A DNA stretch of 64,000 bases from an uncultured Smithella sp. (GTDB lineage: Bacteria; Desulfobacterota; Syntrophia; Syntrophales; Smithellaceae). The stretch lies in contig CAZWCA010000009.1 of the NCBI GenBank assembly GCA_964632255.1, forward strand, positions 4,394 to 68,393, in the 5' to 3' direction. A model generated the notes under the pieces. It saw only the letters and a list, made by a program, of their open reading frames with translations. It was not told where the DNA came from and ran no database searches. Made by a program: the position numbers and the translations under genes. This document shows positions 7,119 through 64,000 of the stretch, one piece after another. The first letter of the stretch is position 1, and every line of letters begins with the position of its first letter.

Positions 7119-9005
7119 TCATTTGTTATTGGAATCCGCCACCCACAATCCCGGCAGGGAATCGACAATGGCTTTGAGACGGCTGCGCTCTTTGTCAAGG
7201 TCTTTTATGAGCATGTTTTTTTCTTCCTCGATCCGCTTTCGTTCGGCTATTTCCGCCCGCAGAATCGCTGTACGTTCGCGCACCCTTTCCTCAAGCTTTT
7301 CCTTGGCTTCCCGCAATGCTTCTTCAGCCCGCTTGCGCTCGGTGATATCCAGAATCGTTCCGATGAAGTAAAACGGTTGACCGGCTTCATTATATACGAC
7401 ATGGCCTTTGGCATTACAGTACTTAAGAACCCCATCCCTGGTGACCAGCCTGACATCGAAATCCAGCGGTTCGCCTGTTTGCAGGCTATGCTCAAATAAC
7501 TTATCATAAAAGGTAAGGTCATCCGGGTGAATGAATTTTCTTTTGGCCTTAAAACTAGGGACAAAATCCTTTTGCGTTACGCCGAAAATCCGGTAAGTCT
7601 CATCTGACCACCATACCTGATCGGTTTTCAAATTCCACTCCCAGCTTCCAATCATGCCCACCTGCTGGGCTTCATTCAATCTTTCCAAGAGCTTCTTTCG
7701 CTCTTCCTCAGCCTGCTTGCGGTTAGTAATTTCTGTTGCCGTCCCGAACCATTCACGGATCTCGCCATTCTTATTGAGTAAAGGCACAGCGCGGGAAAAT
7801 ACCCATCCGGCGCTGCCATCCGCCCGGCGGACCCGGTGTTCCAGTTCGAAAACGCTCTTGGTGCTGATGACCTTGTGAATGGCGGCAAGGATTTGCGGCT
7901 GGTCCTCGGAAAAAATATATTTATCCAACCATCCTCGGCTCGGTTCCGGCATATCGGCGAGAAACCCTCTGCTGTTGAGCCGGCGCATCTCGCTCCAGTC
8001 CGGGCTCATATGGTACAGCACATCCGAACTGGCCATTACCAGAGCCCGGAACTGTTCTTCTTTTTCCGCCAGGGCATCTTTGGCACGGTGAAGCCATGTA
8101 ACATCCTGTATGGCTATTATAGATCCCGTAATTTTTCCCTCTGGGTCCCGCACGGGAGAGGCACTGTTCATGATGATTGCTCGACCTCCGTCAAAACGCT
8201 CGATTTCCATAAGCTGGCTGTAAATAGGCTTGCCTTTTTGGATAGCAATGATCGAGGCCCACTGGTCCAGATGAACAGGATCTCCTGTATCGACCCAGCA
8301 GGCTTTTTGGGAATGGTATCGGTCAATATTATAAATCGGAGTATCACCATCCCAGATCTGATCGAAAGCTTTGTTGGACTGGATAATTTTCCCGTCTGCA
8401 TCCGTAATAGCCGTTCCAATTGGAAGCGTCTGCAACATGGCCTCCAAGCGGCCCTTCTCATGTTCAGCTTCAAGACGGGCCTTCTCCAGCTCGGCCGTTC
8501 GTTCGGCGACCCTCCTTTCCAGCAGGGCGTATGATTTCTGCAGCTCCCTTTCCGCCCGGTGTCTTGCCCTGTGTTCTTCCGCCTCAGCCAGGGCGCGCCG
8601 CACCGCGGGAACAAGCCGGCTCAGGCGGTGCTTGAGCACGTAATCCCGTGCGCCACTGGTAAGCACCTCGATGGCACGGTCTTCGGTTACGGCCCCGGTC
8701 ACTAATATGAAAGGAACATGGGGACATATTTTTTTAGCCAGTATGAGGGCCTGAATGCCGCTGTAGGTAGGAAGATCGTAATCGGAAAGGATAAGATTGG
8801 GTGCGAATCCTCTCAGGGCCTGCTCGAAAGTCTCTTCCGTTTCGACCCGCTTCAGAATGAAGGATATTTCCGCTTCCCTCAGTTCGAAGTCGATCAGCTC
8901 TGCATCGACGGGATTGTCTTCCAGCAACAGGATGCGGATCTCCTTTTGCCGGTTTTCCGATTCTTTAAAGTTATTTATTCTGAGGGCCTTCCCATTCATG
9001 GACAT
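7119..9005 (-). CDS. response-regulator receiver + coiled coil + three PAS domains; truncated paralog lacking the HisKA/HATPase transmitter
   Basis: 628 aa. The N-terminal ~150 aa (REC, phospho-acceptor in LILSDYDLP) are near-identical to the two downstream paralogs. The ORF stops just inside a fourth PAS (LKAIVDSLPGLWVADSNNK*), and decayed PAS sequence continues after the stop. Confidence 0.85.
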   Translation of the reverse strand: MSMNGKALRINNFKESENRQKEIRILLLEDNPVDAELIDFELREAEISFILKRVETEETFEQALRGFAPNLILSDYDLPTYSGIQALILAKKICPHVPFILVTGAVTEDRAIEVLTSGARDYVLKHRLSRLVPAVRRALAEAEEHRARHRAERELQKSYALLERRVAERTAELEKARLEAEHEKGRLEAMLQTLPIGTAITDADGKIIQSNKAFDQIWDGDTPIYNIDRYHSQKACWVDTGDPVHLDQWASIIAIQKGKPIYSQLMEIERFDGGRAIIMNSASPVRDPEGKITGSIIAIQDVTWLHRAKDALAEKEEQFRALVMASSDVLYHMSPDWSEMRRLNSRGFLADMPEPSRGWLDKYIFSEDQPQILAAIHKVISTKSVFELEHRVRRADGSAGWVFSRAVPLLNKNGEIREWFGTATEITNRKQAEEERKKLLERLNEAQQVGMIGSWEWNLKTDQVWWSDETYRIFGVTQKDFVPSFKAKRKFIHPDDLTFYDKLFEHSLQTGEPLDFDVRLVTRDGVLKYCNAKGHVVYNEAGQPFYFIGTILDITERKRAEEALREAKEKLEERVRERTAILRAEIAERKRIEEEKNMLIKDLDKERSRLKAIVDSLPGLWVADSNNK

Positions 9006-45361: not shown

Positions 45362-46909
45362 TTATTTAAAAGAGGCAGGCTCGATGCCGTATTTCACGAT
45401 CCGCAATCCCATAACTCTTTCGGTCATGCCCAATACACGAGCTGCCTTGGCCATATTCCCGCGGCAGCGCTTCAATTCTTCCTCGATGATTTCACGTTCA
45501 AAGGCGGATAGTTTTTCTCTGAAAGTTCCCCCGCGCTTTGCACGTACCGTCATGTTGTTTTTTTGCAGACTATGAGGAAGATGGTTGCAACTAATAGTGC
45601 CGTCCGTACTCAACAGAACTGCTCTTTCAATGTAATTCTCCAGTTCTCTAATATTGCCGGGCCAGTTATAATTTACCAGAAGATCGATTGCCGGCCATGA
45701 TATGCCGGATATTTCCTTCCGCATATCTTTTGAGTATTTTTCAATAAAATGGTTGGCCAGTAACGGAATGTCGGTTTTACGTTCTCTAAGAGGCGGCACG
45801 GCAATAGGAAATATATTTAACCGGTAATATAAATCTTCCCTGAACATACCCTGCGCTACCCGTTCTTCAAGTTTACCGTTTGTGGCCGCAATAATTCGAA
45901 CATCCACTTTGATGGTTTCATTATCGCCTACCCGTTCAAATGCTTTCTCCTGGATGACACGCAGTAATTTTGCCTGAAGCGGTAATGTAAGCTCCCCGAT
46001 CTCGTCAAGAAAGATCGTACCCTGGTCGGCTATTTCAAAACGTCCCTTGCGCAAGGCAATAGCGCCGGTAAAGGCTCCTTTCTCATGCCCGAACAACTCG
46101 CTTTCGATAAGAGAATCAGGCAGGGCCGCACAATTGACCGTTACGAAAGGTTTGTCTGCCCGGTTTGACTGATAATGGATGGCATTGGCCACCCGTTCTT
46201 TACCAACGCCGCTTTCACCCAGCACCAGGACGGTAATATTTGTTCCGCATACTTTATCAATCGCAGTATAAATGCCCTGCATAGCCTTGGAGTTGCCGAT
46301 CATATTTCGCGGAGCATGCCGGATCCTTAATTCGTCGTGGAGGCGATTATTTTCCTCACGCACCATTTCCAGCTCTTCTTCAGCTAATTGCCTCAATCGG
46401 ACTGCCTGAGAAATGCTTGAAGCAATAATGGTCAACAGACGGACATCCTCTTCAAATGAAACATTTTCGTTAAACAGGCGGTCAACGGACAGGGCGCCTA
46501 TTATTTCATTACCGATTCTTATAGGAACACAAATGAAGGCAATTTCGTCCTTATCCAATGTTCTTGAACCTGTTTTGTTCAGGAAAAAGGGATCATGAGA
46601 AATCCTCGGGACAATGGCCGGTTCCCCTGTGTCAATTACCTTACCCGTAATTCCCTCACCCAGACGATATCGCCCCTTCATCAATTCCTCAGGAAGTAAA
46701 CCGTACGCCTCATCAATAAAAATTTCACCGCTGTTGCGATTCAGAATCGTGAGTGTGCCCCGGAGCATATCCATATGCTCGGCCATCATCCGCAGAATCG
46801 GTTTCAATGCCGTTTTCAGATCCAGATTTTCACTTAAATTCCGGCTGATTTCGAAAAGGAGTGTCAATTCTTTTATGGCCCGTAAGGCCTTGTCTTCCGG
46901 TGTAGCCAT
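45362..46909 (-). CDS. nifA: NifA-type sigma54-dependent transcriptional activator (GAF - AAA+ - Fis HTH)
   Basis: 515 aa. GAF domain, GESGVGKE Walker A, intact [23 protein letters not shown]-terminal [29 protein letters not shown]. Confidence 0.85.
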
Positions 46910-48881: not shown

Positions 48882-50243
48882 CTATTGTCTGTAATAGCGA
48901 TCTCTCATGATCTTCCGGTGCATGCCAAACTTCTTGGCAAGTAAGGTATTACTAATGTCGTCCAGTAATTTCAACGAACCATTATAACCGGTATAAACAA
49001 GCCGTTGTCCGCCAAAACGATCATTTATCGGAAAACCGATTCGGACAGGGGGTATCCCGTACTTTTCCGTAATCTGTTTGCCGGTGGAATTGCCGATGAT
49101 TAAATTCACCTCTTTTTCCAGGGCATGCTTCTCAATGGTCTCAAAATCCGTATCATCCAGGATCAGTGCTTGGGCACAAGAACAAGCAAGCTTACCACTA
49201 AGTTCCATTTTTAAGAGGGCACTCTGGGAACCGGTGCTGATAATAGAAGGTTCGATTCCGTTCTCAAAACATATACAGCTGATGGAATATACGATGTCGG
49301 GTTCGCCATATATCAAGGCTTTAATGCCGCCATTCAATTTGTGGGCATCAATCATTCCATCCACCAACCGGCCGCGATCCTCAATTATCTTATTAGGGAT
49401 TGATTTTTGCGAAAGATCGGAGAGGGTCACCATAAAACGGTCTGTATTGTCGATCCCGATGGGAATGGGGCACCGGTAACAGGGAACACCATATTCGTGT
49501 TCCAGGAATTGCCCCGGTGAGATGTTATCCGGAATGGTTACCCCAATTTCCAATGATGCTCTGGATGTTGCCATCATCTGGATATCCCTGTATCGAGTTC
49601 CTCCGACAGGGATACGGTTGAATTCACGAGAGAAGGGAGCATCAAAAGTATAGGAGATATCCGGCAGCATAATATAATTGATTCCGAAGGATTCCAGAAT
49701 TTCTTTGATATTCCTTACATCACCCGGACATACGTGCGGCATAATGACATTTACCCTCTGGTGTCGAATTCCAGGTTTCGTAGTTTGCCGGACAATGTCA
49801 AGCAAGGTTGTGTAATATCCCTCGTGCAGGGTTCCGCCATAGCCCGGAGTATTTGTTGTTATAATGTGGATTCCTGTTGTATCGTTTTCTGATTCGAACT
49901 CCTTTATGATCCTATTGAGGTCTTCGCCAATGGTCTCAGCCAGACACGTTGTGGAAACTCCAATAATTTGGGGATTATAAATCCGGATGAGATTTTTTAA
50001 ACCTTTCTTCAGGTTATTTGCACCACCGTGGATGGTGGCATTCTCATGCAGAGACGATGATGCAATATCGAACGGCTCTGAATAATGCGTAGTGATATGC
50101 GTGCGTATATATGCGCTGCACCCTTGTGAACCGTGGAGCATCATCATGCTGTTCTCTATGCCGTGGAAAGCGATGGCGGCGCCCATAGGCATGCACATTT
50201 TGCACGGATTGATATTCAAGTTCTCGAAATTTCTTTTTTTCAA
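48882..50243 (-). CDS. nifN: nitrogenase FeMo-cofactor biosynthesis scaffold NifN
   Basis: NINPCKMCMPMGAAIAFHGIENSMMMLHGSQGCSAYIR...STTCLAETIGEDL (component-1 fold, beta-like). Probable TTG start at 50243 overlapping the nifE stop (TTGA), 8 nt after GGAGGTG. The track ORF extends to a GTG at 50285. Confidence 0.85.
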   Translation of the reverse strand: MKKRNFENLNINPCKMCMPMGAAIAFHGIENSMMMLHGSQGCSAYIRTHITTHYSEPFDIASSSLHENATIHGGANNLKKGLKNLIRIYNPQIIGVSTTCLAETIGEDLNRIIKEFESENDTTGIHIITTNTPGYGGTLHEGYYTTLLDIVRQTTKPGIRHQRVNVIMPHVCPGDVRNIKEILESFGINYIMLPDISYTFDAPFSREFNRIPVGGTRYRDIQMMATSRASLEIGVTIPDNISPGQFLEHEYGVPCYRCPIPIGIDNTDRFMVTLSDLSQKSIPNKIIEDRGRLVDGMIDAHKLNGGIKALIYGEPDIVYSISCICFENGIEPSIISTGSQSALLKMELSGKLACSCAQALILDDTDFETIEKHALEKEVNLIIGNSTGKQITEKYGIPPVRIGFPINDRFGGQRLVYTGYNGSLKLLDDISNTLLAKKFGMHRKIMRDRYYRQ

Positions 50244-51673
50244 CTTGTCAACACCTCCTTCATTTCCGGAAATCCAATCGTGCACAGCTCATGCGATGAT
50301 ACGACATCTTCCCTTGTCCATTTCCAAACAGGACTGTTGGAGGTGAGATGCATTTCTTTGGCGAAATTAATCATCCCTTCGTAGGTTGTAAGAGGATGTT
50401 TGCGGTCGTGGTTAAAATCCACAAATGGAATTCCCATCTTTAAAGAGAGAGCCCGTTCCTTGACATTGCCGATGAGAATGTCAGGCTTCATTTTTTTCAT
50501 ATACTTCTCGAGTTCCGCAGGCGAGGTATCGTTCAAGATGACAGCGCCTTCTGTTGCAAATCCATGTATTATCCGGTAGTCCTCAGCATTGCCATGCTGG
50601 GTTCCGATGATAATGGTTTTAATATCAAATTCCTTGAGAAGCCTGATAATCGCGATAGCTTTGTATGTGCCGCCGACACAAACAGCAGCCCTCTTGCCTC
50701 TCAATTTCATTTTGTAACTCTCAATAACCGGTTTGACTGCTTTTTCCTCCTCATCCGCCAGGCTTAACGACTTTTCAACCAGTTCGCTGCCGCCGATTAT
50801 TCCGGAAATCTGTATCAGGGAATTTCTGATATCTTCAAAACCGATAAACCGGACCTTTATGGAGGGGATATTGAACTTTTCCTCCATCTGTTTAGAGAGG
50901 TATGCCATGGAGCCAGAACATTCCACGATGTTGAGGCTTGCGCTGGGTGCCTTCATTATCTGATCGTACGTGGAATCACCCGTTATCTTTGAAATGACTT
51001 TGATGCCGATCCTCCGGAGGTATTCCTCAATGATCCAGATTTCACCGCCATGGTTGTAGTCCCCAAGGATGTTTACGCCGGGCTTTTTTTCCTGTCTTTC
51101 GTCACCCATGAGTTCCAGCAGGGCACTGCATGCAAGCCTGTACCCCAGAGGCTTCGCCCCGGTAAATCCGCTGGATTTCACCGGTATGATGCGGACTATG
51201 TGCTTGTGCTCCATTCGCTTGCATACTGATTCGATGTCATCACCGATCACGCCGACAACGCAGGTCGCGTATACGAAAATGAGACGGGGTCTTGGCTTGT
51301 AGTTTTCCATGATTTCTTCGATCGCTGCGAGCAGCTTTCTTTCTCCGCCAAATATGATGTCCTGCTCCCGGAGGTCAGTGGAAAAGCTGTTCCTGTATAA
51401 ATCGGCATTACTGCTCAAACTTCCCCTTAAATCCCACGTATAGCTCGCACACCCGATAGGACCGTGAACAAGATGGACCGCGTCCGTGATGGGATTCAAT
51501 ACAACTCTTGCGCCACAGTAAACACAGGCCCGCTGACTTATGGAACCGGCGATACTTTCCTTTTCGCATCTGATTTGTCCTCCGCTGCAACCGGAAGATT
51601 TAAACATTATATGAGCCTTTCGTTCTTCAAGGACATCCTTGAAATCCGTAAAGGCATTCTTTTCTCCTTTCAT
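50240..51673 (-). CDS. nifE: nitrogenase FeMo-cofactor biosynthesis scaffold NifE
   Basis: Start at MKGEKN (ATG 51673, GGAGGT 5 nt upstream). RACVYCGARVVLNPITDAVHLVHGPIGCASYTWDLRG and YATCVVGVIGDDI resemble NifE/NifD-fold cluster sites. Confidence 0.88.
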   Translation of the reverse strand: MKGEKNAFTDFKDVLEERKAHIMFKSSGCSGGQIRCEKESIAGSISQRACVYCGARVVLNPITDAVHLVHGPIGCASYTWDLRGSLSSNADLYRNSFSTDLREQDIIFGGERKLLAAIEEIMENYKPRPRLIFVYATCVVGVIGDDIESVCKRMEHKHIVRIIPVKSSGFTGAKPLGYRLACSALLELMGDERQEKKPGVNILGDYNHGGEIWIIEEYLRRIGIKVISKITGDSTYDQIMKAPSASLNIVECSGSMAYLSKQMEEKFNIPSIKVRFIGFEDIRNSLIQISGIIGGSELVEKSLSLADEEEKAVKPVIESYKMKLRGKRAAVCVGGTYKAIAIIRLLKEFDIKTIIIGTQHGNAEDYRIIHGFATEGAVILNDTSPAELEKYMKKMKPDILIGNVKERALSLKMGIPFVDFNHDRKHPLTTYEGMINFAKEMHLTSNSPVWKWTREDVVSSHELCTIGFPEMKEVLTS

Positions 51674-51710
51674 AATACCTCCATTGCAGCCTGTATAGGG
51701 ACTGAATATT

Positions 51711-52127
51711 TCAATTTGATGGCCCCTCAAACATGAAATCGTGTTTGAGAATACGTTTCAGCCAGAGAGGCTTCTTGCCTTTAAACAGTCCCTGTAGTTT
51801 GAAGATTGCTGCTTCAATCGATTCAACTGCATTCATTTCTATAGGGTACACGCCCGATGCAATCACACGGTCTGCGATGGGACCGCCGATGGCTGAAACA
51901 AAGATGACATCGCTTTCCCTTATGGCGTCAATTCTCTCGTCAATGGAAAAAGGCTTTCTATGCACAGGCCTTATTGCGAGATCATCGGAGCCGCCTTGCG
52001 GGGAGAAGCTTGCTGCATGATTGAACTTACAAGTTTCTTCAGTAATATCGTAGAACATAAAGTAACGGCATAAGGCAAAATGCCCGTTCAGGTTCTCTCT
52101 ATCATTGGTCGCAAATACAACTCTCAT
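51711..52127 (-). CDS. nifX: NifX/NafY-family FeMo-cofactor-binding protein
   Basis: 138 aa. MRVVFATNDRENLNGHFALCRYFMFYDI..., IGGPIADRVIASGVYPIEM and KPLWLKRI parallel the NifX pattern (..AFAS.D...V..HFG....F.IY., GV.PIK., P.WL.K). Confidence 0.8.
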   Translation of the reverse strand: MRVVFATNDRENLNGHFALCRYFMFYDITEETCKFNHAASFSPQGGSDDLAIRPVHRKPFSIDERIDAIRESDVIFVSAIGGPIADRVIASGVYPIEMNAVESIEAAIFKLQGLFKGKKPLWLKRILKHDFMFEGPSN

Positions 52128-52191: not shown

Positions 52192-53553
52192 CTACATGAT
52201 GAGCTCAAGATTTTCATCGAGAGCATCCCTATCGGACCTGTCCAGAAGCGTATTGCCGATCATCTCAAGAAGACGCATGAGTCCCCTGTAACCTACAGTG
52301 GGCAGATAGGAATGCACTCCACGATCCATAATAGGGAAGCCAAACCGGACAAAAGGAATATCTTCAGCACGAGCTATATATTTGCCATACGTATTCCCAA
52401 TCAAGAGGTCCACTGGATCATTCTTGATCCATTGATGCAGCGTGAACAAGTCGCCGGCACTTTTCACCTTACCATCTATTTGCGCTTCCCGGAGCATGGA
52501 ACTCACCTTTTCTTCGAATGCAATTCCCGGGGTGCCGGTCAAAACAAATTGAGGAATCATTCCCAGTTCAAGCAGAAACGAAGCGAGCGCCATTACCGTA
52601 TCCGGGTCTCCAAATACTGCTACTTTTTTGCCGAAGTAATGCTGGTGAAGATCAGCCATTACGTCGATTACCTGACCGCGTTCCTCTTCCAGTTCATCCG
52701 GGATACCTTTCCCTGTTAAGTTTGAAACCGTCATAAGGAAGTCATCCATGGCATTTATCCCAATAGGGATCATGAGTGTTAAAGGAGGAACCCCGCACTT
52801 GTTTTGTAATTCATGAGCACCCCGCTCTGACGAGAAGCTTCCTAATGCTATGGTTGCCCTGGAGTTGCCCGCATCGATTATATCATTCACTTTTGTTCCG
52901 CCCTTGGGAAAGATGTGGTAATTGCCGGTCAATGGCGCATCCATAACACCGCTCGTATCGGGAAACATGATGAAGTCCACGTCCATAATCTGCAGTATCC
53001 GCTTGATTTCCCTCATATCGCCGGGGTTAACGAACCCTGGAATGATATTTATCTTCCCATTGGGTATCCCGTTATTCTCGCTGAGGTATCTGACCATTCC
53101 AACAATCATATTGGAAAATCCGATAATGTGAGATCCCACATAGCTTGGGGTGTTCGCATGAATGATATATTTTCCTTCAGGCTTAGCGGACTTGCTGATA
53201 ATTGTTGGTATGTCATCTCCTATAGTTTCCGATAGACATGTCGTGTGAATAGCGATAATGTCCGGATTATATATGGAGAATACATTGTTGATCGCGGTTG
53301 TCAGATTGGCCATGCCGCCGAACACGCATGCCCCCTCTGTGAATGAACTGGTGGAAGCCTCGGCCGGCTCACGGAAATGTCTGTTCAAATGGCCCCTAAA
53401 GTACATCTGACATCCCTGTGATCCATGGCTGTGCGGCAGACAACGGTGAATCCCCAAAGCAGCATAGGTAGCTCCCAATGGCTGGCAGGTTTTTGCCGGA
53501 TTGATAACAAGCGCCTTGCGCTCAAAAATTTCTTTAGGTGTATGGTCTAACAT
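52192..53553 (-). CDS. nifK: Mo-nitrogenase MoFe protein beta chain (short N-terminus, anaerobe type)
   Basis: 453 aa. P-cluster cysteine contexts TCQPLGA, HGSQGCQMY, TTCLSETIGDD. The ATG abuts the nifD stop (TAAATG) with GGGAGG upstream. Confidence 0.92.
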   Translation of the reverse strand: MLDHTPKEIFERKALVINPAKTCQPLGATYAALGIHRCLPHSHGSQGCQMYFRGHLNRHFREPAEASTSSFTEGACVFGGMANLTTAINNVFSIYNPDIIAIHTTCLSETIGDDIPTIISKSAKPEGKYIIHANTPSYVGSHIIGFSNMIVGMVRYLSENNGIPNGKINIIPGFVNPGDMREIKRILQIMDVDFIMFPDTSGVMDAPLTGNYHIFPKGGTKVNDIIDAGNSRATIALGSFSSERGAHELQNKCGVPPLTLMIPIGINAMDDFLMTVSNLTGKGIPDELEEERGQVIDVMADLHQHYFGKKVAVFGDPDTVMALASFLLELGMIPQFVLTGTPGIAFEEKVSSMLREAQIDGKVKSAGDLFTLHQWIKNDPVDLLIGNTYGKYIARAEDIPFVRFGFPIMDRGVHSYLPTVGYRGLMRLLEMIGNTLLDRSDRDALDENLELIM

Positions 53554-55179
53554 TTAAAATACCTCCCTTAAATATGAGCCATGAATAAGAGGCTCTGTCT
53601 TCCACTTGGGTTTAATCATTTTCCAAACCGGTGCAGTCAGCCCCATAGCGATGTCCCGGGCAAAAACCACGGCTCCGTTAAAGCCCGCAAAGGGACCGCT
53701 ATAGTCATAGGAATGGATCTGTTTTGAAAGGGTGCCCATCTTGTGGATGACGTATTTCTCTTTTATACCGGATCCGAAAAGATCCGGATTCAATAGTTTC
53801 ATAAAAGATTCCATCTCATAATGATTTAAATCATCAACGACGACGCTTCCGTCCTTCATAATTTTTATCATTCCTTTGAAATAATTGAGTTCCATTTGCA
53901 TTCTGAGTTCCTCAAACTTTTCCCTCGAAAGCATGAGGCGGTAGAATTTTTCATCCGGTTGCACTGACAGGTTCTCGATGTTTTTATTATCAGCGTTCTC
54001 CTTGATAAAAGGGATGACTTCACGTCCTTCGTAATCGTCGCGATGGGCGAATTCGAAACCAGCCAGGACTGTTTCCATGCCGATCTCTTCAAAAAGTCCT
54101 TGGAAGTGGTTGGCGCGGGAACCACCGACAAAAAGTGCCACAGTCTTCCCTTTGCAGATCTTTTTATATTTCTCTATCTGCGGCTGAATGATCGCCATTT
54201 CGTTTCTGATGAATTCATCAGTTCTGCAGATCAGATCGGGGTCTCCAAAGTAAGAAGCCAAATCATTCAATGCTTGGATCGTACTCCGGATGCCAAGGAA
54301 ATTCACTTTAATCCAGTCTGTTCCGTATTTCTCCCGTAATAACTCTGCATTGTAATTGGTTGATCGATGGCACTGCACCAGATTTAGGTCAGCACTGTGG
54401 GCCTTCCTCAAACGTTCTACGGAACCGTCACCGGACATAATAGAAATGATATCGTACCCTATGGTTCTCAGAATACGTTCTATCTCCCATCCATCGCCAC
54501 CGATGTTGTATTCGCCGAGGATGTTAAGCGAATAATCCTTTTTATCCTTTTTTACAGAAGCCTTAGTTCCTATAATATTTTTAAACAGACCGTTGTTTGC
54601 TATGTGGTGGCCTGCTGATTGACTTACCCCCTTGTAGCCTTCGCAACTATAAGCAATTGTCTGAATTCCGAACTCTTGTTCCGCCCAGCGCGCAACGGAA
54701 TGGATATCATCACCGATCAATCCCACAGGGCATGTTGCGCAGATCATGATGCTTTTGGGTTTGAATATTCGGACGACTTCTTCCACGGCCTGTTTCAACT
54801 TTTTCTCGCCGCCGAATACGATGTCGCTTTCTTGCATGTCTGTAGAAAAGCAATAAGTGAGGAAATTATACTCTTCATCTTTATTCTTTCTCGCTCTGTT
54901 TCTTCTTGTAAGCCAGCTATAATACCCGCAACCGATTGGTCCATGAGTTATGGCGACAGTATCTTTCAGCGGACCGACAACTACCCCTTTGCACCCCGCA
55001 TAACAACAACCACGTTCCGTAATAATCCCCGGGATGGTCCGACAATCAGCCACCATTTCCTGCGGAGCCTCTTCCGAGTTCACCACCAGCAGATGCCCCT
55101 TACGGCTTCTGTGCGTTTTCGGTGAGTATTTTTTTAAGATATTTTCCACATCTGCTTTCATTAATGTTATATTCGCCAT
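53554..55179 (-). CDS. nifD: Mo-nitrogenase MoFe protein alpha chain (anaerobe/group-II-like, ~50-aa insertion)
   Basis: Start at MANITL (AGGAGG 7 nt upstream). ERGCCYAGCKGVVVGPLKDTVAITHGPIGCGYYSW, CPVGLIGDD and GVSQSAGHHIANN are present. So are the FeMoco ligand contexts QCHRSTNY (Cys) and IHSYDYSGPFAGFNG (His). An extra segment sits between DDYEGRE and VVDDL relative to the Azotobacter NifD I remember. Confidence 0.92.
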   Translation of the reverse strand: MANITLMKADVENILKKYSPKTHRSRKGHLLVVNSEEAPQEMVADCRTIPGIITERGCCYAGCKGVVVGPLKDTVAITHGPIGCGYYSWLTRRNRARKNKDEEYNFLTYCFSTDMQESDIVFGGEKKLKQAVEEVVRIFKPKSIMICATCPVGLIGDDIHSVARWAEQEFGIQTIAYSCEGYKGVSQSAGHHIANNGLFKNIIGTKASVKKDKKDYSLNILGEYNIGGDGWEIERILRTIGYDIISIMSGDGSVERLRKAHSADLNLVQCHRSTNYNAELLREKYGTDWIKVNFLGIRSTIQALNDLASYFGDPDLICRTDEFIRNEMAIIQPQIEKYKKICKGKTVALFVGGSRANHFQGLFEEIGMETVLAGFEFAHRDDYEGREVIPFIKENADNKNIENLSVQPDEKFYRLMLSREKFEELRMQMELNYFKGMIKIMKDGSVVVDDLNHYEMESFMKLLNPDLFGSGIKEKYVIHKMGTLSKQIHSYDYSGPFAGFNGAVVFARDIAMGLTAPVWKMIKPKWKTEPLIHGSYLREVF

Positions 55180-55205: not shown

Positions 55206-55946
55206 TCAATAATTATTCCAATGAATGATTTTTCGTTCTGCCATGATCATAATCTTGTTCATTATCAATCCAAGCAACCCCACCAGGATAATAGTTAAAT
55301 ACATTTCAGGAGTTGCATAAGCGGTTTGGGCGTATACAACCCTGCTTCCAAGACCGTATTTCGCGCCCACCAGCATTTCAGTAACAATTCCGACTATGAC
55401 ACCCATGGACAGGGCAACTCTAGTTCCAATGAATATTTGAGGAAGCGCATCGAAGATCACTATCCTGCATAAAACCTGACGCCATGAAGCGCCCATTATC
55501 CTCGCAATTCTCACTCTGGTCTTATTGCCATTGATAACTCCCATCGACGTATTCAGTATAATGATCAACATGCATCCGAAAATAATCACGGCGATTCTCG
55601 ATTCTTCCCCGGTACTAAAAATCAACATGGACAAGGGGTAAACAAGAATAGGCGGGATAGAACGGAAGAAATCCAGCGCTGTTTCGACATATGGACGTAT
55701 CCTGCCGAAATAGCCCAAAAGAATTCCCATCGGAATTCCAGCTGCCAGTGCTGCCAGGACTCCAATAACTACCCTTATGAAGGAATAAACCATGTCCAGG
55801 TAAATACTTTTTTCAGCGAAGAGCCTGATGCCTACATTAAGCGTTTCTTGCGGAGTCGGCAGGAACAACGGATTAACCAGTTGAGTCCAGGATAATCCTT
55901 CCCATAAGAGAACTATTGCCGAAAATGTGATGATGTATTTTTTCAT
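55206..55946 (-). CDS. ABC transporter permease, NitT/TauT (SsuC/TauC-like) family
   Basis: Start taken at MKKYIITF. Six TM segments, and an EAA-like loop ARIMGASWRQVLCRIVIFDALPQIF. Embedded in the nif operon. Confidence 0.85.
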   Translation of the reverse strand: MKKYIITFSAIVLLWEGLSWTQLVNPLFLPTPQETLNVGIRLFAEKSIYLDMVYSFIRVVIGVLAALAAGIPMGILLGYFGRIRPYVETALDFFRSIPPILVYPLSMLIFSTGEESRIAVIIFGCMLIIILNTSMGVINGNKTRVRIARIMGASWRQVLCRIVIFDALPQIFIGTRVALSMGVIVGIVTEMLVGAKYGLGSRVVYAQTAYATPEMYLTIILVGLLGLIMNKIMIMAERKIIHWNNY

Positions 55947-55971
55947 TTTCTGCTCCGCACTATTGTTGCTC

Positions 55972-56796
55972 TCATGAGAAGCGCGCTTCACCTTGGAAAC
56001 AAATCCGATGTTCATGATCGTGGTTAATCCTTTGAAGAACGCGGCTGTTCCACGCGGGATTCGTTTTCTCCAGTATTATCTTGGCCGGTTTATCCGACAG
56101 GAAAATAACCCTGCTGGACAAATAGAACAAATGCTCTATATCATGAGCCACAATCAAAGTAGGGATCTTGATCTCTTCCCGTATTTCCAGAAGTTTATCC
56201 ATGAGCCATTCGCCATTCGAGCAGTCGAGGGCTGAAAATGGTTCGTCCATAAGCATCACATCCGGATCAGAGATTAATCCCCGTATAATTGCTGCATATT
56301 GCTGCTGTCCCCCGCTCAATTGGTATGGATATTTATCAATTGAGAACGGGATTCTTATAAGATTCGTAAGCCAGCATAATTTCTCTGCTATGAGACTCTT
56401 GTTCCATTTTTTTAAGACCAAGGGAAATAGGATATTATCCCTGATTGATAACCAGGGAAAAAGGCTGCTCCGGAAGTCTTGGAAAATATAAGAGATGCTA
56501 TTTTCTCCCGGCTTTTTTCTCCCTATAGTTATGTGCCCGGAATCCGGTTCGATGATGCCGGAAATCATATTGAGCAAAGTAGTTTTTCCACATCCGTTCG
56601 GGCCAAAAATCCCCACAACTTCATCATAGTCCACGGAAAGGCTGAATTCCTCAAAAATCCGTTCTTCCTTGCCGGCAGAAATTCTTGCCTTCTTGCATAT
56701 CTTGTTAATATGAATTCCGTTCACCATCATCCCAGTTCCATTCATTATCAATTGACCAGTGAATTGTTTGAAAAAAACTGAACTCCAAATTTTCAA
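55972..56796 (-). CDS. ABC transporter ATP-binding protein, NitT/TauT (SsuB/TauB-like) family
   Basis: GIFGPNGCGKTT Walker A, LSGGQQQ signature, LMDEPFSALD Walker B. Start uncertain: TTG overlapping the SBP stop at 56796, or internal ATGs at 56745/56730. Confidence 0.88.
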   Translation of the reverse strand: MKIWSSVFFKQFTGQLIMNGTGMMVNGIHINKICKKARISAGKEERIFEEFSLSVDYDEVVGIFGPNGCGKTTLLNMISGIIEPDSGHITIGRKKPGENSISYIFQDFRSSLFPWLSIRDNILFPLVLKKWNKSLIAEKLCWLTNLIRIPFSIDKYPYQLSGGQQQYAAIIRGLISDPDVMLMDEPFSALDCSNGEWLMDKLLEIREEIKIPTLIVAHDIEHLFYLSSRVIFLSDKPAKIILEKTNPAWNSRVLQRINHDHEHRICFQGEARFS

Positions 56797-57758
56797 TTAG
56801 CTCCACGGAAGAGAGCGTTTGAGAGATCAACCTTTTCTTTGATTATCCCCAATTTTTTATGTGAATCACCGATTCTTATCAGTTTAGCGGGTGTGAATTG
56901 CGACGATTTCAAAAACAAGGAATCCGGATACTTATTAACGAAAGACCTTTGCGCTTCGGGAAGGAATTTCCCCATACTTACTTTAGACTCTTGCTGATTG
57001 GCAGTTATGTATTCGATTGCCTCATCAAGGGAGTTAATAATTCGTTGGGCAACAACTGGATTCTTGTTAACAAAATCCTTGGCCATGCAAAAACTCGCAA
57101 AAGGAAATGGAGATCCTAAATATTTTGGAACCAGAGCTTCCTTGAGCAGGAGACGGCCGATACCTTTCTCAATGCATGCTGTAACCGCAGGATCATTTGT
57201 AAACATGGCGTCGACTATGCCTGACTCGAGAGAGGCGGGGGTCATGGCCGGCGCTACCTGTTGTATAATAACTTCGTCTAATTTTACGTTATTTTTTTGA
57301 AGGATGAGTTCAAGCCAGACTTTATACGCAAATGTTGGAAGAATTCCTATTCTTTTACCTTTAAGGTCGGAGATTTTTTTTATCGATGAATCCTTTTTTA
57401 CGACGAACATGCTCACAGGATGTTTGTTATCTTCCAGCATCAGAGTGGCATAATATAATTCTTTTTTGCTTCTGAGCTGAGCACTCAAGATAATAGGAAA
57501 GGCTGCGTAACCGGCAACATCAAGTTTCCCGCTGCAAAGAGCATCGATTAGCGGTTGAGCTGTATCAAACTTTACCAGATCGACATCAATACCGTTCTTT
57601 TTGAATATCCCCTTTTCTTGCGCTACAAAAATAGGAAGGCTTATCCGTAAAGTGCTACATCCTATCCTCACCCTCTCGTTGCCGGCGGCCGGATTACCGG
57701 CGCACAAAAATATTACGAACACAATGACCCAGATCAATCTTTCGGAATTCTTATTCAT
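56793..57758 (-). CDS. ABC transporter periplasmic substrate-binding protein, NMT1/SsuA-like
   Basis: 321 aa. Signal peptide, then the SsuA/NMT1-type pattern (LPIFVAQEKGIFKKNGIDVDLVKF...DVAGY...KGKRIGI...). Confidence 0.82.
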   Translation of the reverse strand: MNKNSERLIWVIVFVIFLCAGNPAAGNERVRIGCSTLRISLPIFVAQEKGIFKKNGIDVDLVKFDTAQPLIDALCSGKLDVAGYAAFPIILSAQLRSKKELYYATLMLEDNKHPVSMFVVKKDSSIKKISDLKGKRIGILPTFAYKVWLELILQKNNVKLDEVIIQQVAPAMTPASLESGIVDAMFTNDPAVTACIEKGIGRLLLKEALVPKYLGSPFPFASFCMAKDFVNKNPVVAQRIINSLDEAIEYITANQQESKVSMGKFLPEAQRSFVNKYPDSLFLKSSQFTPAKLIRIGDSHKKLGIIKEKVDLSNALFRGAN

Positions 57759-57778: not shown

Positions 57779-58513
57779 TTATTTAGCGAAGTCTAAGGTT
57801 TCATCTCCTGTTTCTGCTGTGCGGATGCGGATAGATTCGGATATGGGCATCACAAAAATCTTACCATCACCCGGTTTCCGGGTACGGTTAGCGGAGATAA
57901 TTGTCTCCGCTACTTTATTAACCAGCTTATCCGGTACGACAACAGAAAGCATACGCTTGGGAATAAGCCGTTGTGTATTGCCCAGTTGCGCGATAGCTTC
58001 CTCATAACCCTGTTCCGCCCCCTTGAGCACCTTGAAATCCAACACACCCTTGCCGCGTCCCAGACACTCGCGGACATGCAGGGATGAGATCTCTGCATCG
58101 ATTAGGGCCTCTTTCGTCTGGTTGATTTTGTTCATCCGGATAATAGCCACAACTTCTTTCATCCGGGCACCTTCCGCCTTGTCAGCATCCGTCTCTTTAA
58201 TACCGGAGCTGACCGTGTAGACTTCCTCCACGGGGGAAACGAAAATCTTGCCGTCTCCGAATGCACCGTTGGCTCCTGTGCGGGCAGCACCTATGACCGT
58301 TTTGATGACCATGTCCTTCTCCGCGTCCGGTACCACGATGATCAGTAATTCCTTGGGAATCCCGTCATAAGTAATGTCACCGATCTTGATTCCGCGCTGC
58401 CGTCCGCGTCCGGATACGTTCATGCGCGTAACAGCGGGGAATCCCTCGGCCATTAAGTTTTCTAAAACCTTATCAGCCTTTTCCGGCCTGACGATTGCTC
58501 TAACCATCATCAT
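57779..58513 (-). CDS. fused NifI1-NifI2 (two tandem P-II domains in one ORF)
   Basis: 244 aa. Residues 1-~112 are NifI1-like (short T-loop, GRGRQRG...FGDGKIFVSPV). Residues 118-244 are NifI2-like (long T-loop, GRGKGVLDF...IPKRM...PGDGKIFVMPI). The internal ATG at 58162 keeps a GAAGGTG SD-like sequence 6 nt upstream. Confidence 0.88.
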   Translation of the reverse strand: MMMVRAIVRPEKADKVLENLMAEGFPAVTRMNVSGRGRQRGIKIGDITYDGIPKELLIIVVPDAEKDMVIKTVIGAARTGANGAFGDGKIFVSPVEEVYTVSSGIKETDADKAEGARMKEVVAIIRMNKINQTKEALIDAEISSLHVRECLGRGKGVLDFKVLKGAEQGYEEAIAQLGNTQRLIPKRMLSVVVPDKLVNKVAETIISANRTRKPGDGKIFVMPISESIRIRTAETGDETLDFAK

Positions 58514-58517
58514 CGCT

Positions 58518-58797
58518 TTACCTCCTCACGTTTCGTTGTTCAGTTTCTAATCCCCTAATCCAATATCCTATTTGATCAGAGCAGAGCTTCCATCTCTTCC
58601 GTAGCCAGAGGTTTGGGGATGACGAATACCTGGTTTTCATCAATGACCTCAGCAATTTTGCGGTATTCATCAGCATGGTTAGGCGAGTGTCGCAGGCGAT
58701 AACGGATTTGCGGTTGATTCCGGTGCGCTGCAATCGTATTTTGTGTAGTAGTTGATTTCCCGATTCCGCCTTTGCCATAATAGCAATCTTCTTTCAA
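58518..58797 (-). pseudogene. nifH: nifH remnant: frameshifted and internally deleted dinitrogenase reductase gene
   Basis: About 280 nt where ~830 nt is expected. One frame reads ..[19 protein letters not shown].., then ..[32 protein letters not shown] (NifH C-terminus). The neighbouring frame holds KKIAI before the P-loop and ..[16 protein letters not shown] ([11 protein letters not shown] lacking PKADS). The switch I/II regions and the 4Fe-4S cysteines are absent. Confidence 0.85.
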
Positions 58798-58820
58798 TTT
58801 TATGTTTTTTTTAGCATAGG

Positions 58821-58836
58821 ATCAAAATACATGCCA
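58821..58836 (-). promoter_or_regulatory. sigma54-like promoter upstream of the nifH remnant, with non-consensus -12
   Basis: Minus-strand reading is TGGCATGTATTTTGAT. The -24 element and spacing fit, but the -12 reads TTGA instead of TTGC. ~25 nt upstream of the remnant. Confidence 0.4.
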
Positions 58837-59393
58837 AACAGGAAAGTGATATGAGATACTTTCGGGGAAATATATTTTTATATATATTATCAAATTGTTA
58901 TTAATTGCTTTAACTTCGATCAATGACTCGAAAACCACATTTTATAAATTAAATAAATGCAACGTAACGGTAGGAAATACAGAATTGTCATACTGTAGCG
59001 TATGATTTCTTTGCCGGCTTACCCTCCAGAAACCCAATGCCTTTGAGTTAAGAACATATTATAAGCTAAACCAATTGGGATTAATCAATATGACGGTTCC
59101 TTGCATGCGACAAAGTTTCGATACAAAAGATCATACATCTGCGTAGACTTCGTGAATAATCGTACCTTCTTGTTTATGTGAGCAAAAAATTATCATAATC
59201 ATTTGAACTCATGTAATATTTTTCCTTGCAGTGCCTTAGTAATACAATATAATCCACCTCATGAAATATTTTTTATGATCCGTTTTTGTCTTTTCAGCAG
59301 TTATGACTTCCTGTAGCATTCACACTTAAAATTATTTTTAAGTATTTGTTTTATCTTGATTTAAATAAATATCAAAATAAATCGTTAAAAAAT

Positions 59394-59612: not shown

Positions 59613-59957
59613 ATGAAAAGAATTGAAGCAATTATCCAGTTGGATAAAATTGAAGGCGTGTCCAATGCATTGAAAAAAATCGGTCATAATGGACTGGCGA
59701 TTACCGAAATCAAAGGCTATGGATATCAGGAAAATCTGCTGCGCCGGTTTCGTGGTGTTTCCTTTTCCAATAAGGTAGATCGCATCAACAAGGCAAAGGT
59801 TGAACTTACTGTAAATGAAAATGAAATTGATGAAATTGTCGACGCAATCCGCAAATCAGCATATGCCGGCAGCTTCATGAATGAAAAAATATTTATTCAT
59901 TCTGTAGATGATGCGTTGCGGATTTGCTTCGGAAATAAAGAAGTAAATGCCCTATAG
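59613..59957 (+). CDS. divergent P-II-like (GlnB-fold) protein
   Basis: 114 aa. MKRIEAIIQLDKIEGVSNALKKIGHNGLAITEIKGYGYQ...KAKVELTV follows the P-II beta-alpha-beta pattern. The T-loop and the GDGKIFV motif are degenerate (MNEKIFIHSV). AAGGAG SD. Confidence 0.7.
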   Translation: MKRIEAIIQLDKIEGVSNALKKIGHNGLAITEIKGYGYQENLLRRFRGVSFSNKVDRINKAKVELTVNENEIDEIVDAIRKSAYAGSFMNEKIFIHSVDDALRICFGNKEVNAL

Positions 59958-60665: not shown

Positions 60666-60681
60666 TGTACATTCAAGAACA
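60666..60681. promoter_or_regulatory. candidate NifA-type UAS (TGT-N10-ACA)
   Basis: TGTACATTCAAGAACA, ~150 nt upstream of the anfH -24 element. The pattern is short, so a chance occurrence is plausible. Confidence 0.35.
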
Positions 60682-60829: not shown

Positions 60830-60845
60830 TGGCACATATTCTGCT
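60830..60845 (+). promoter_or_regulatory. sigma54 -24/-12 promoter of the anf operon
   Basis: TGGCACATATTCTGCT (TGGCAC-N5-CTGCT, GG-N10-GC exact), ~60 nt upstream of the anfH ATG. Confidence 0.75.
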
Positions 60846-60869
60846 CATCAGGAAAATAATACTTCTTAA

Positions 60870-61733
<864 letters not shown>

Positions 61734-61751
61734 CGCGCAAAGGAGAATTCA

Positions 61752-62069
61752 ATGAAAATGATCAAGGCAATCATTCGTCCCGAAGCAGCGGATACAGTGG
61801 CGGACAGCCTGGCTGAAGCCGGATTCTTCTCAATGACGAAAATCAATGCGTTCGGCCGTGGAAAGCAAAAAGGGATTACCGTTGAAAACATGCATTACGA
61901 CGAGTTACCGAAGACGATGATCATGATGGTCGTCGAGGACAAGGACGTCGAAGAGGTGCTGAGACTCATAAAGTACAAGGCTTACACCGGAAACTTCGGC
62001 GACGGGAAAGTATTTGTAACGCCGGTTGACTATGCGTTCACCGTCCGCACCGGCGAAAAGACCTTATAG
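61752..62069 (+). CDS. nifI1: NifI1-type P-II protein of the anf operon
   Basis: 105 aa. MKMIKAIIRPE...FGRGKQKG...GNFGDGKVFVTPV. AAGGAG SD. Between the H and D genes. Confidence 0.9.
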   Translation: MKMIKAIIRPEAADTVADSLAEAGFFSMTKINAFGRGKQKGITVENMHYDELPKTMIMMVVEDKDVEEVLRLIKYKAYTGNFGDGKVFVTPVDYAFTVRTGEKTL

Positions 62070-62078
62070 GAGGATCGT

Positions 62079-62444
62079 ATGAAGGAAATCACGGCTATCA
62101 TCCGTCCCAAAAAAATCACCGCGACGAAAACCTCCCTGGAGAACCTCGGATTCCCCGGCATGACCGCGATACAGGTCCTCGGCAGGGGTCACCAGAGAGG
62201 AATCGCCGGAGAATTGAACTACGAAGTCAGTCCCAACATCATAGGAAAGTCCTGCGGCATGAAATACATTCCCAAACGCATGATCAAGATCGTCGTACGC
62301 GACGAGGACGTCGACAAAGTCGTCCGTACGATTGTCGATGTAAACCAGACGGCGCAGATTGGCGACGGGAAAATCTTCGTGAGTCCCGTTTTCGACGCAC
62401 TCAGAGTGCGCACGGACGAGACCGGCGACAACGCCCTGGCATAG
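62079..62444 (+). CDS. nifI2: NifI2-type P-II protein of the anf operon
   Basis: 121 aa. MKEITAIIRPKK...LGRGHQRG + extended T-loop ...YIPKRMIKIVV...IGDGKIFVSPV. GGAGGA SD. Confidence 0.9.
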   Translation: MKEITAIIRPKKITATKTSLENLGFPGMTAIQVLGRGHQRGIAGELNYEVSPNIIGKSCGMKYIPKRMIKIVVRDEDVDKVVRTIVDVNQTAQIGDGKIFVSPVFDALRVRTDETGDNALA

Positions 62445-62447
62445 TAA

Positions 62448-64000
<1,553 letters not shown>

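Follow-up and report, generated by a model that had tools for sequence, protein, structure and literature searches.

What does a solute importer do inside a nitrogenase operon? In the window, by which we mean the whole 64-kb stretch of DNA analysed here, three ABC transporter genes lie between nifI and nifD. The answer bears on the heterometal supply of anaerobic diazotrophs in sulfidic, Mo-poor settings and, through it, on how nitrogen is budgeted in sediments, in peat and in models of the early Earth. We tentatively read the genes as an operon-embedded cofactor-supply importer, whose substrate would most likely be molybdate, tungstate or a related Mo/W species. As a whole, this reading appears to us quite possible, somewhat short of probable.

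The operon and its transporter genes

The host operon encodes a molybdenum nitrogenase (Table 1). NifD exceeds the cut-off of TIGR01862 and contains the motifs CHRS, GHH and HSYDYSGPF, NifK and NifE pass the equivalog cut-offs of TIGR01286 and TIGR01283, and NifN and NifX are also encoded. A nitrogenase-like system of the Mar/Isr (NFL) type was rejected because NifDK are canonical, with FeMo-co ligand motifs, and are accompanied by NifE, NifN and NifX. The preliminary description of this DNA had likewise thought a Mar-type homologue unlikely. An intact nifH is missing from the operon. In the remnant that takes its place, a deletion of ~200 internal codons has joined the P-loop N-terminus to the C-terminal ~55 codons, and a 1-nt indel lies close to the 3′ end; the remnant is identical in three other contigs (L001, L002, L004). 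The only intact Fe-protein gene within the window is anfH (60870-61733). Neither this remnant nor the fusion of nifI1 and nifI2 into a single gene is mentioned in the preliminary description; in the relatives L136 and L138, nifI1 and nifI2 are separate genes.

Table 1. Features of the nif operon, with positions in the window; profile scores are followed by the cut-off of the model.
Feature	Position	Strand	Description
Sigma-54-type promoter candidate	58821..58836	(-)	TGGCATGTATTTTGAT; ~25 nt upstream of the nifH remnant; 1 mismatch to TGGC-N7-TTGCW
nifH pseudogene	58576..58797	(-)	222-nt remnant; alignment vs intact nifH of L136 and anfH of the window
Fused nifI1-nifI2	57779..58513	(-)	244 aa; two P-II domains (PF00543 in two stretches)
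Solute-binding protein (SBP) gene	56793..57758	(-)	321 aa; SsuA/NMT1 fold; N-terminal signal sequence; Pfam NMT1_2 and NMT1, E 3e-23
ABC ATPase ORF	55972..56796	(-)	ABC_tran, E 1e-28; likely start ATG 56727 (251 aa)
ABC permease ORF	55206..56015	(-)	TauC/SsuC/SaoP-like; BPD_transp_1 (PF00528), E 2.5e-15; alternative start 55946
nifD	53554..55179	(-)	Mo-nitrogenase alpha, long 'anaerobe-type' form; TIGR01862 561.7 vs 486; TIGR01282 630.7 vs 653.6
nifK	52192..53553	(-)	TIGR01286 448.6 vs 427.3
nifX-like	51711..52127	(-)	profile matches
nifE	50240..51730	(-)	TIGR01283 556.7 vs 505.1
nifN	48882..50285	(-)	TIGR01285 311.6 vs 326.8

The operon would run from the candidate sigma-54 promoter through the nifH remnant, nifI1I2 and the SBP, ATPase and permease genes to nifDKXEN, and these genes are probably co-transcribed. 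Sigma-54-like matches occur at chance frequency across the window, and position is the sole argument for the candidate listed in Table 1. No TGT-N10-ACA site was found upstream of the operon on the side of the nifH remnant, and within the operon no promoter-like or terminator-like site rose above chance.

The three transporter ORFs are intact and lie on the operon strand, as first described. A secreted SBP, an ATPase with three motifs (Walker A GPNGCGKTT, signature LSGGQQQ, Walker B LMDEPFSALD) and a BPD_transp_1 permease occur together, as expected of a binding-protein-dependent ABC importer. The ATPase has no TOBE or other C-terminal domain. The earlier assignment to the NitT/TauT type is borne out by the NMT1/NMT1_2 matches of the SBP, by its fold, and by a permease that is nearest to SaoP, TauC and NtrB. 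At the junctions, the gap of 20 nt between nifI and the SBP gene is confirmed, and the 26 nt before nifD hold if nifD starts at ATG 55179, the choice of gene callers on identical contigs. The reported TTGA overlap between the SBP and ATPase genes exists only with an ATPase start at TTG 56796. With ATG 56727, which is favoured by gene callers and by an NCBIfam alignment beginning at residue 28, it is replaced by a gap of 65 nt. The ATPase and permease ORFs share 44 nt, and an alternative ATG of the permease at 55946 has GGAG upstream.

The base composition of the transporter genes (GC 0.42-0.43, GC3 0.42-0.49) matches that of nifDKXEN (GC 0.44-0.47, GC3 0.47-0.55), as had been claimed, and the mean GC of the window is 0.44; the neighbouring anf cluster, unlike the transporter genes, has a GC3 of 0.65-0.73. 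A recent foreign insertion was rejected on this basis. Contig L001 is base-identical over 3.7 kb, from the nifH remnant up to the nifD start, and shorter identical stretches are present in L002-L004, from other sequencing runs. Since independent run assemblies share the arrangement, a misassembly or chimera was also rejected.

Relatives in nif, anf and AOR clusters

A transporter-centred search starting from the SBP, which counts the carriers found and not their share of nif clusters, returned nif- or anf-linked relatives with at least 50% SBP identity in about 20 independent loci from several phyla. The transporter lies between nifI2 and nifD (L136, L138), directly before nifD (L143), between nifI1 and nifI2 (L007, L056, L057, L061, L139), after nifN (L005, L006, P0004 contig, L141, L050), before nifH or anfH (L008, L009, L011, L059) or beside nifA-like and nifDKXEN genes (L013, L046), and in L010 its genes are split around nifDKEN. 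The linkage has thus outlived repeated rearrangement, with at least six arrangements, which argues for selection. We consider it very likely that the genes encode a conserved nif-associated importer. It would belong to a distinct orthologous NitT/TauT clade, co-inherited with Mo-nitrogenase genes of the 'anaerobe-type' in several phyla. The word 'insertion', used in the preliminary description, is better replaced by a conserved, mobile part of the nif gene module. That description had also allowed that the arrangement might prove widespread and already be tied to a known substrate. The first is the case; as to the second, the literature searched holds no substrate assignment for this transporter clade. 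Annotated plasmid homologues, for example from a Desulfovibrio megaplasmid, gave no match at E 1e-20.

Could the transporter be a hitch-hiking or decaying passenger without a nitrogenase-related role, in an operon that is heading for loss? The deletion in nifH would fit this explanation, and so would the lower conservation of the transporter proteins (50-71% identity vs 74-90% for NifD/NifK). However, the three transporter ORFs and nifDKXEN are intact and identical in independent assemblies, their composition is that of the host, and the linkage is kept across the loci listed above. We regard a passenger as very improbable. Homocitrate import was rejected as well: nifV or nifV-like genes share the clusters of L138, L141 and L050, where such an import would be unnecessary.

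A second genomic context is provided by tungsten enzymes. The SBPs of L062 and L142 are 56-57% identical to that of the window, in the same range as nif-embedded copies, and are encoded inside operons of tungsten-type aldehyde:ferredoxin oxidoreductase (AOR) with the order HTH, acyl-CoA dehydrogenase, B12-radical SAM, AOR, SBP-ATPase-permease, MoaD, ferredoxin and ThiF/MoeB. More distant relatives are found downstream of AOR on the same strand (L014, L017, L018, L068, L083, L084). A neighbour-joining (NJ) tree places the nif clade as a nested group amid AOR-linked members. No published cluster of AOR, MoaD, radical SAM and ABC genes was found in the literature. Some members of the clade are placed next to nifD, nifI, nifN or nifH, and others between an AOR gene and MoaD/MoeB pterin-sulfur genes.

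Further neighbours concern regulation and metal supply. Regulators with a PF12727 PBP_like domain adjoin the transporter in five loci (L009, L011, L060, L050, L141). The C-terminus of a MoeA fusion aligns with this domain, and ModA-type, sulfate- and thiosulfate-binding proteins do so weakly; the tungstate-responsive PBP_like regulators (TunR) offer a possible parallel. AnfO-like genes lie 1-4 kb from the SBP gene in eight loci and are directly adjacent in some, e.g. L010 and L012. In L005, the transporter is followed downstream, at a distance of 3.5 kb, by a canonical modABC, and a ModA-like protein is encoded beside it in L063/L032. No Moco/Tuco riboswitch was detected upstream of the transporter in nine AOR-linked loci, nine Firmicute-type loci or the window. 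The sole match (L063, 3619-3753) controls an FDH/XdhC unit and is separated from the transporter by a gene on the opposite strand. Distant members in Myxococcota, Acidobacteriota and Flavobacteria have the same invariant residues and no Mo/W context, their neighbours being lineage-specific only (Kelch lipoproteins, BcrAD-type activases, HTH or kinase genes).

The importer would take up a solute required for metallocofactor assembly, and on the evidence of its neighbours we hold a cofactor-related role to be probable. With its genes forming part of the operon, its synthesis would keep pace with that of NifDK and NifEN.

The binding pocket and candidate substrates

The AF2 model of the SBP has a pLDDT of 94.6 and a hydrophobic N-terminal helix (residues 3-19), and the sequence scores 83.4 bits with NMT1_2 against a cut-off of 24.7. 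The best Foldseek match of the model was SsuA 3KSJ (TM 0.70), and SsuA (3KSJ/2X26) and TauA 6SSY gave TM values of 0.69-0.71. Invariant residues comprise R38, T66, Y84, E109, D110, H113, T142, Y145 and D189. Among those lining the pocket are the acids E109, D110 and D189 and the histidine H113, and a 4-residue hinge insert bears E109, D110 and H113. In the alignment with TauA, the positions contacting the sulfonate oxygens are conserved (S60/G61 as T66/A67, T132 as T142). The amine-binding Asp205 of TauA is replaced by Ala221, and by Ala or Gly across the clade. A TauA-like taurine site was rejected as Asp205 has no counterpart. TauA Glu106 corresponds to Ser116, beside the 4-residue insert, where the hinge alignment is uncertain.

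These features have first to be weighed for a scavenger of organic N and/or S compounds, for example taurine-like aminosulfonates, sulfonates or aminophosphonates. Such an importer would share the regulation of N2 fixation and bring in nitrogen at a lower cost. Characterised family members bind taurine, alkanesulfonates, pyrimidines and others, the closest structures are SsuA and TauA, the sulfonate positions are retained and the acidic residues could hold an amine. In addition, the window and L058 both have amtB and nifA close by, and deamination of an amine to an aldehyde would fit the AOR neighbours. Against such a substrate stand the curated models, whose cut-offs are all missed widely: SsuA (TIGR01728 128.1 vs 163.5; PRK11553 52.7 vs 299), TauA (TIGR01729 65.3 vs 304; PRK11480 51.5 vs 490), SsuC (PRK11365 69.9 vs 347) and TauC (PRK10160 113.8 vs 342). 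The loss of the amine-binding Asp also speaks against it. The desulfonation genes ssuD/ssuE are absent from the window and the related loci examined, and no other gene for a desulfonating or deaminating enzyme (tauD, tpa, xsc, islA) was seen in any nif or AOR locus examined. Moreover, an importer of a nitrogen source would, from its place between nifI and nifD, switch off its own operon, and the MoaD/MoeB, PBP_like-regulator and AnfO-like neighbours would stay unexplained. We consider an organic substrate unlikely. Caution is advised with the annotation, since pipelines call these genes 'nitrate/sulfonate/taurine transporter' though the curated thresholds for those functions are failed.

The pocket may also be read as a metal site, with the importer delivering iron, another metal cation or a metal chelate to nitrogenase, AOR and other low-potential Fe-S enzymes, whose need for Fe-S clusters is very high. 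Its invariant Glu, Asp, His and Tyr residues, together with an Arg/Thr anion site, presumably resemble the ligand sets of ferric-binding proteins, and the fold has metal- or cofactor-binding members (3UN6 with Zn, PqqT with PQQ/Gd). Iron would cover all contexts, from Nif, Anf and AOR to the BcrAD-type activase genes beside distant homologues, and would be compatible with modABC alongside in L005. Fe-S proteins are, however, so common that this linkage is weak evidence. Furthermore, neither Fur nor siderophore genes turned up in the loci, and the adjacent regulators bear PBP_like domains of the oxyanion type. Iron, another metal cation or a metal chelate is, in our estimate, quite unlikely.

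Alternatively, the conserved site of the SsuA-like SBP could accept a tetrahedral or pyramidal sulfur oxyanion or a sulfonate (sulfite, thiosulfate, sulfonate), imported to provide the sulfur of clusters or of the pterin. Sulfur-carrier genes (MoaD/ThiS and ThiF/MoeB) flank the transporter in L062 and L142, the weak matches of the PBP_like regulators extend to sulfate- and thiosulfate-binding proteins, and sulfite is reported from in-vitro work to donate the cofactor's ninth sulfur. Yet sulfur does not limit the many carriers that reduce sulfate or inhabit sulfidic sites, genes of sulfur starvation (cys, ssu) are missing from the vicinity, and the AnfO-like linkage would be left unexplained. 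We judge this substrate improbable.

Foremost among the candidates would be a group-6 oxyanion (molybdate or tungstate) or another form of Mo/W, for instance thiomolybdate or a chelate. Genomic context makes Mo/W specifically a possible substrate, which we favour tentatively: the nif/anf and W-AOR linkages, the PBP_like regulators and the AnfO-like genes all point this way. So do the conserved TauA-type oxyanion contacts, the membership of the oxyanion binders NrtA and CmpA in the NitT/TauT family, and the lack of a ModA homologue in the 64-kb window. The latter was assessed with an E. coli ModA query, validated by its matches in L005 and L063. Against Mo/W count the modABC of L005, the lack of a Moco riboswitch and the distant members outside any Mo/W context. 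The acidic pocket would also suit a cation or zwitterion better than a dianion. An exception may be carboxylates that coordinate the metal, by analogy with WtpA, where they do so. The preliminary description had set this locus apart from the expected mod/nif association. We depart from it here, as its basis was family annotation alone, as the proteins fall below the cut-offs of all curated SsuA, TauA, SsuC and TauC models, and as the operons with W-AOR, MoaD and MoeB, the PBP_like regulators and the AnfO-like genes suggest a mod-analogous role in supplying a cofactor metal.

With its place in nifDK operons and, independently, in operons for the maturation of tungsten enzymes, the importer is a concrete, clonable candidate. 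Current minimal-nif-set definitions and engineering efforts ignore such an accessory importer. Should the substrate be neither Mo nor W, the clade would still point to an accessory role in 'anaerobe-type' nif clusters that has so far gone unnoticed.

Comparison with known systems

Among NCBIfam models, SaoXAP gave the best scores for ATPase and permease and was rejected, with 129-156 bits vs cut-offs of 295-360. The SsuABC/TauABC systems (NitT/TauT, TC 3.A.1.17) share the three-component architecture, the SBP fold and the permease family with the transporter described here. In contrast, identity to them is only 19-24%, the hinge insert and Ala221 (TauA Asp205) distinguish the SBP, and the genes lack ssuDE/tauD partners and occur in a nif or W-AOR context, not in a sulfur-starvation regulon.

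Isr/Mar nitrogenase-like sulfur enzymes are also adjoined by an Ssu/Tau-type ABC system, but these enzymes serve to acquire sulfur and come without NifEN or genes for FeMo-co biosynthesis. The 'Nif operon II' of Desulfitobacterium hafniense DCB-2 is nitrate-induced and encodes VnfE/VnfN-like D/K homologues (PMC3306737), whereas the D/K proteins of the window are canonical NifDK with NifEN and NifX. Pattern-based scans did not return any Desulfitobacterium locus.

ModABC, WtpABC and TupABC are the usual transporters of nif clusters and tungsten-enzyme operons, encoded within or next to them and often accompanied by a divergent regulator that senses oxyanions, and the transporter of the window follows the same genomic logic. 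It differs in its SBP, which belongs to another family (no PF13531/SBP_bac_11/ModA match), and in its ATPase without TOBE. Having modABC in L005 and a ModA-like protein in L063/L032 for company, it is not simply a replacement for Mod. A 2026 survey gives ModABC, WtpABC and TupABC as the only prokaryotic Mo/W systems. That the clade is a fourth such uptake system, which uses a NitT/TauT SBP instead of ModA, WtpA or TupA in anaerobe nif and W-AOR operons, is rather doubtful at present. Such a system might specialise in the Mo/W species of sulfidic habitats, e.g. thiomolybdates or a chelated form, and this would explain its coexistence with ModABC. With its different binding-protein fold, the transporter is not a member of the ModABC, WtpABC or TupABC systems and would at most be analogous to them in function.

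An ABC importer within the nif gene string

The three genes of an ABC importer, which belongs to the NitT/TauT family and has an SsuA/TauA-like predicted fold, show conserved linkage to nif/anf genes and to genes for aldehyde:ferredoxin oxidoreductase (AOR), MoaD and MoeB. In the window they lie in one closely packed minus-strand gene string (48.9 to 58.8 kb). The preliminary description had placed the importer inside the nif operon, and this observation is borne out: the gaps of 20 nt after nifI and 26 nt before nifD are as it gave them, the three genes agree in GC and GC3 with the nif genes and the window, and no promoter-like or terminator-like sites within the string rise above chance. Its ‘TTGA overlap’ holds if the ATPase starts at TTG, whereas the gene callers' ATG (56727) leaves 65 nt. 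One contig (L001) is base-identical to the window over 3.7 kb, from the nifH remnant to the nifD start, and contigs from other runs (L002-L004) over shorter stretches.

Features of the window
Feature	Positions	Strand	Remarks
Receiver-PAS protein	7119-9005		near the tandem kinases
Hybrid sensor kinase, 1052 aa	9225-12383	(-)	tandem paralogue
Hybrid sensor kinase, 1047 aa	13980-17123	(-)	tandem paralogue
nifA, full-length	45362-46909		
NifA-like sigma-54 activator, 465 aa	46963-48360	(-)	GAF + AAA+, no C-terminal HTH_8
nifD	53554-55179	(-)	then nifK, nifX-like gene, nifE, nifN
Transporter, three genes	55206-57758	(-)	between fused nifI1-nifI2 and nifD
Permease, BPD_transp_1	55206-56015	(-)	nearest models SaoP, TauC, NtrB
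ABC ATPase	55972-56796	(-)	Walker A, signature, Walker B intact; no extra domain
Binding protein, 321 aa	56793-57758	(-)	hydrophobic N-terminal signal; Pfam NMT1_2 + NMT1, E 3e-23
Fused nifI1-nifI2, 244 aa	57779-58513	(-)	two P-II domains
nifH remnant, 222 nt	58576-58797	(-)	pseudogene of nif operon
Sigma-54-like promoter candidate	58821-58836	(-)	first element of nif string
GlnB-like P-II gene	59613-59957	(+)	
Stand-alone HTH_8 ORF, 65 aa	59975-60172	(+)	adjoins GlnB-like gene
TGT-N10-ACA site	60666-60681		anf cluster
Sigma-54-like site	60830-60845		anf cluster
Fe-only nitrogenase cluster	60830-64000	(+)	anfH, anfI1, anfI2, anfD...

The family assignment was likewise correct, as the Pfam and permease model matches are joined by a confident AlphaFold2 model of the binding protein (pLDDT 94.6), which superposes best on SsuA and TauA (TM about 0.70, 19-24% identity). 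The curated functional models are all failed widely: the binding protein scores 128 with SsuA_fam (cut-off 163.5) and 65 with TauA (304), the permease 114 with TauC (342) and 70 with SsuC (347).

The nifH remnant (58560-58850 region) joins the P-loop part to the last ~55 codons, with ~200 codons deleted and a 1-nt indel close to the 3′ end, and is the same in three independent assemblies. Since anfH is the sole intact Fe-protein gene within the window, NifDK must depend on AnfH or on a nifH located elsewhere in the genome. The divergent Fe-only nitrogenase cluster lies 2 kb upstream of the nif string. GC3 is 0.65-0.73 in anfH and anfI1/I2, far higher than elsewhere in the window (0.42-0.55), and suggests that the cluster was recently acquired by horizontal transfer.

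The nif string is followed at its 3′ side by the HTH-less activator, nifA, an outer-membrane protein gene and amtB. The HTH_8 ORF and the GlnB-like gene both lie upstream of the anf cluster. The tandem kinases contain receiver, multiple PAS, HisKA and HATPase domains. The genes nifI1 and nifI2, fused here, are separate in a close relative (L136) and the other loci examined.

Linkage to nitrogenase genes in other loci

The search ran outward from the binding protein; nif genes were then mapped on the recovered loci and pre-annotated contigs were added. In this transporter-centred sample, the transporter is linked to nif or anf genes at about 20 independent loci, with identities to the window of 50-68% (binding protein), 45-69% (ATPase) and 39-71% (permease). 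Named organisms comprise ‘Deltaproteobacteria’/Solidesulfovibrio, Omnitrophota, Desulfosporosinus, Desulfocucumis and Selenomonadales.

The transporter lies between nifI2 and nifD in L136 (with intact nifH) and L138, opens the nifD operon in L143, separates nifI1 from nifI2 in L007, L056, L057, L061 and L139, and follows nifN in L005, L006, the P0004 contig, L141 and L050. It stands upstream of nifH or anfH in L008, L009, L011 and L059, beside a nifA-like gene facing nifDKXEN in L013 and L046, and is split in L010 (ATPase-nifDKEN-AnfO-SBP-permease, SBP being the binding protein). AnfO-like genes occur 1-4 kb from the binding-protein gene in eight loci, some directly adjacent, and nifV-like genes share the cluster in L138, L141 and L050. 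In Desulfosporosinus sp. SbF1 (L008, 40-10127), the transporter includes a tandem pair of binding-protein genes and is followed by a HutP-like gene and an Fe-only cluster, anfH-I1-I2-D-G-K.

In the nif-linked loci, NifD and NifK share 74-90% identity with their counterparts in the window, a degree of conservation that the transporter proteins do not reach. That linkage outlasts so many rearrangements speaks for a role connected with nitrogenase, and a functionless passenger is highly improbable.

AOR-linked relatives and the proposed substrate

Two transporters as similar to the window's as the nif-linked ones (L062, 56/55/51% identical; L142, binding protein 57%) lie outside nif clusters, inside AOR operons (L062, 5609-14858; L142, 3818-13145). 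The order is ArsR/MarR-type HTH regulator, acyl-CoA dehydrogenase-like, B12-radical SAM, AOR, importer (SBP-ATPase-permease), MoaD-family protein, small ferredoxin and ThiF/MoeB; this recurrent operon is apparently undescribed so far. An AOR gene directly precedes more distant relatives (40-51% identity; L014, L017, L018, L068, L083, L084), and the nif-linked clade falls among AOR-linked members, nested within them, when a neighbour-joining tree is built. AOR-family enzymes carry a tungsten or molybdenum pterin, whose dithiolene is made by MoaD and MoeB.

Because a group-6 oxyanion is the common need of Mo-nitrogenase and tungsten AOR, we propose that the transporter is probably a cofactor-supply importer. 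Encoded in their operon, it would be produced in concert with NifDK and NifEN, presumably by co-transcription, and would take up molybdate, tungstate or a related Mo/W species for the cofactor; this choice of substrate, drawn from gene context, is more tentative. HTH + PF12727 PBP_like regulators adjoin the transporter in L009, L011, L060, L050 and L141, an architecture we take to be that of tungstate-responsive modABC regulators in Desulfovibrio. In alignments, the PBP_like domain matches the C-terminal portion of a MoeA-fusion ‘molybdopterin biosynthesis protein’ and, weakly, ModA-type and sulfate-binding proteins. The interpretation in the preliminary description is partly borne out: family and placement stood, but its dismissal of a mod-like role was unjustified. 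Neither a ModA homologue nor any other recognisable Mo transporter is encoded in the 64-kb window.

Several findings, however, count against a Mo/W substrate. Canonical modABC lies 3.5 kb from the transporter in L005 and a ModA-like protein adjoins it in L063/L032, so the transporter is not a simple Mod replacement; bound species or affinity may differ. No Moco riboswitch was found upstream of any transporter operon, and distant homologues keep the invariant residues outside any Mo/W context. The invariant cleft residues (R38, S40, T66, Y84, E109, D110, H113, S116, T142, T187, D189, F220, F223) include three acids and one histidine; E109, D110 and H113 sit on a 4-residue hinge insert relative to TauA. 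Such a pocket could also suit a metal cation, zwitterion or sulfur oxyanion. Uptake of iron or another metal, as a rival reading, is quite unlikely. Mapping on TauA shows its sulfonate-oxygen contact positions conserved, whereas its amine-binding Asp205 is replaced by Ala or Gly. Among the other rivals, scavenging of a nitrogen or sulfur compound appears unlikely, and supply of a sulfur oxyanion very unlikely.

In L063, a Moco/Tuco riboswitch (RF01055, 66.9 bits, 3619-3753 (+)) lies downstream of a MoCF_biosynth gene and upstream of an FDH-like/XdhC/methyltransferase unit; a peptidoglycan-binding + ModA-like domain protein separates this unit from the binding-protein gene.

Comparison with known systems

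A 2026 survey lists only ModABC, WtpABC and TupABC as prokaryotic Mo/W importers. The cofactor-supply importer would work like these while being a member of none, the likeness being one of proposed function only. It is a well-defined, cheaply testable case which might bring to light a new way in which anaerobic nitrogen fixers acquire Mo/W. Our literature search found nothing defining the clade, its recurrent canonical nifHI1I2DK placement, its tungsten-AOR relatives or its substrate. A 2025 survey notes in general terms that genes for NitT/TauT transporters often lie close to nif clusters, and reviews connect Ssu/Tau transporters with nitrogenase-like sulfur enzymes. The nitrate-responsive Nif operon II of Desulfitobacterium hafniense DCB-2 (PMC3306737) differs in that its D/K genes are VnfEN-like, in contrast to the canonical nifDK found here.
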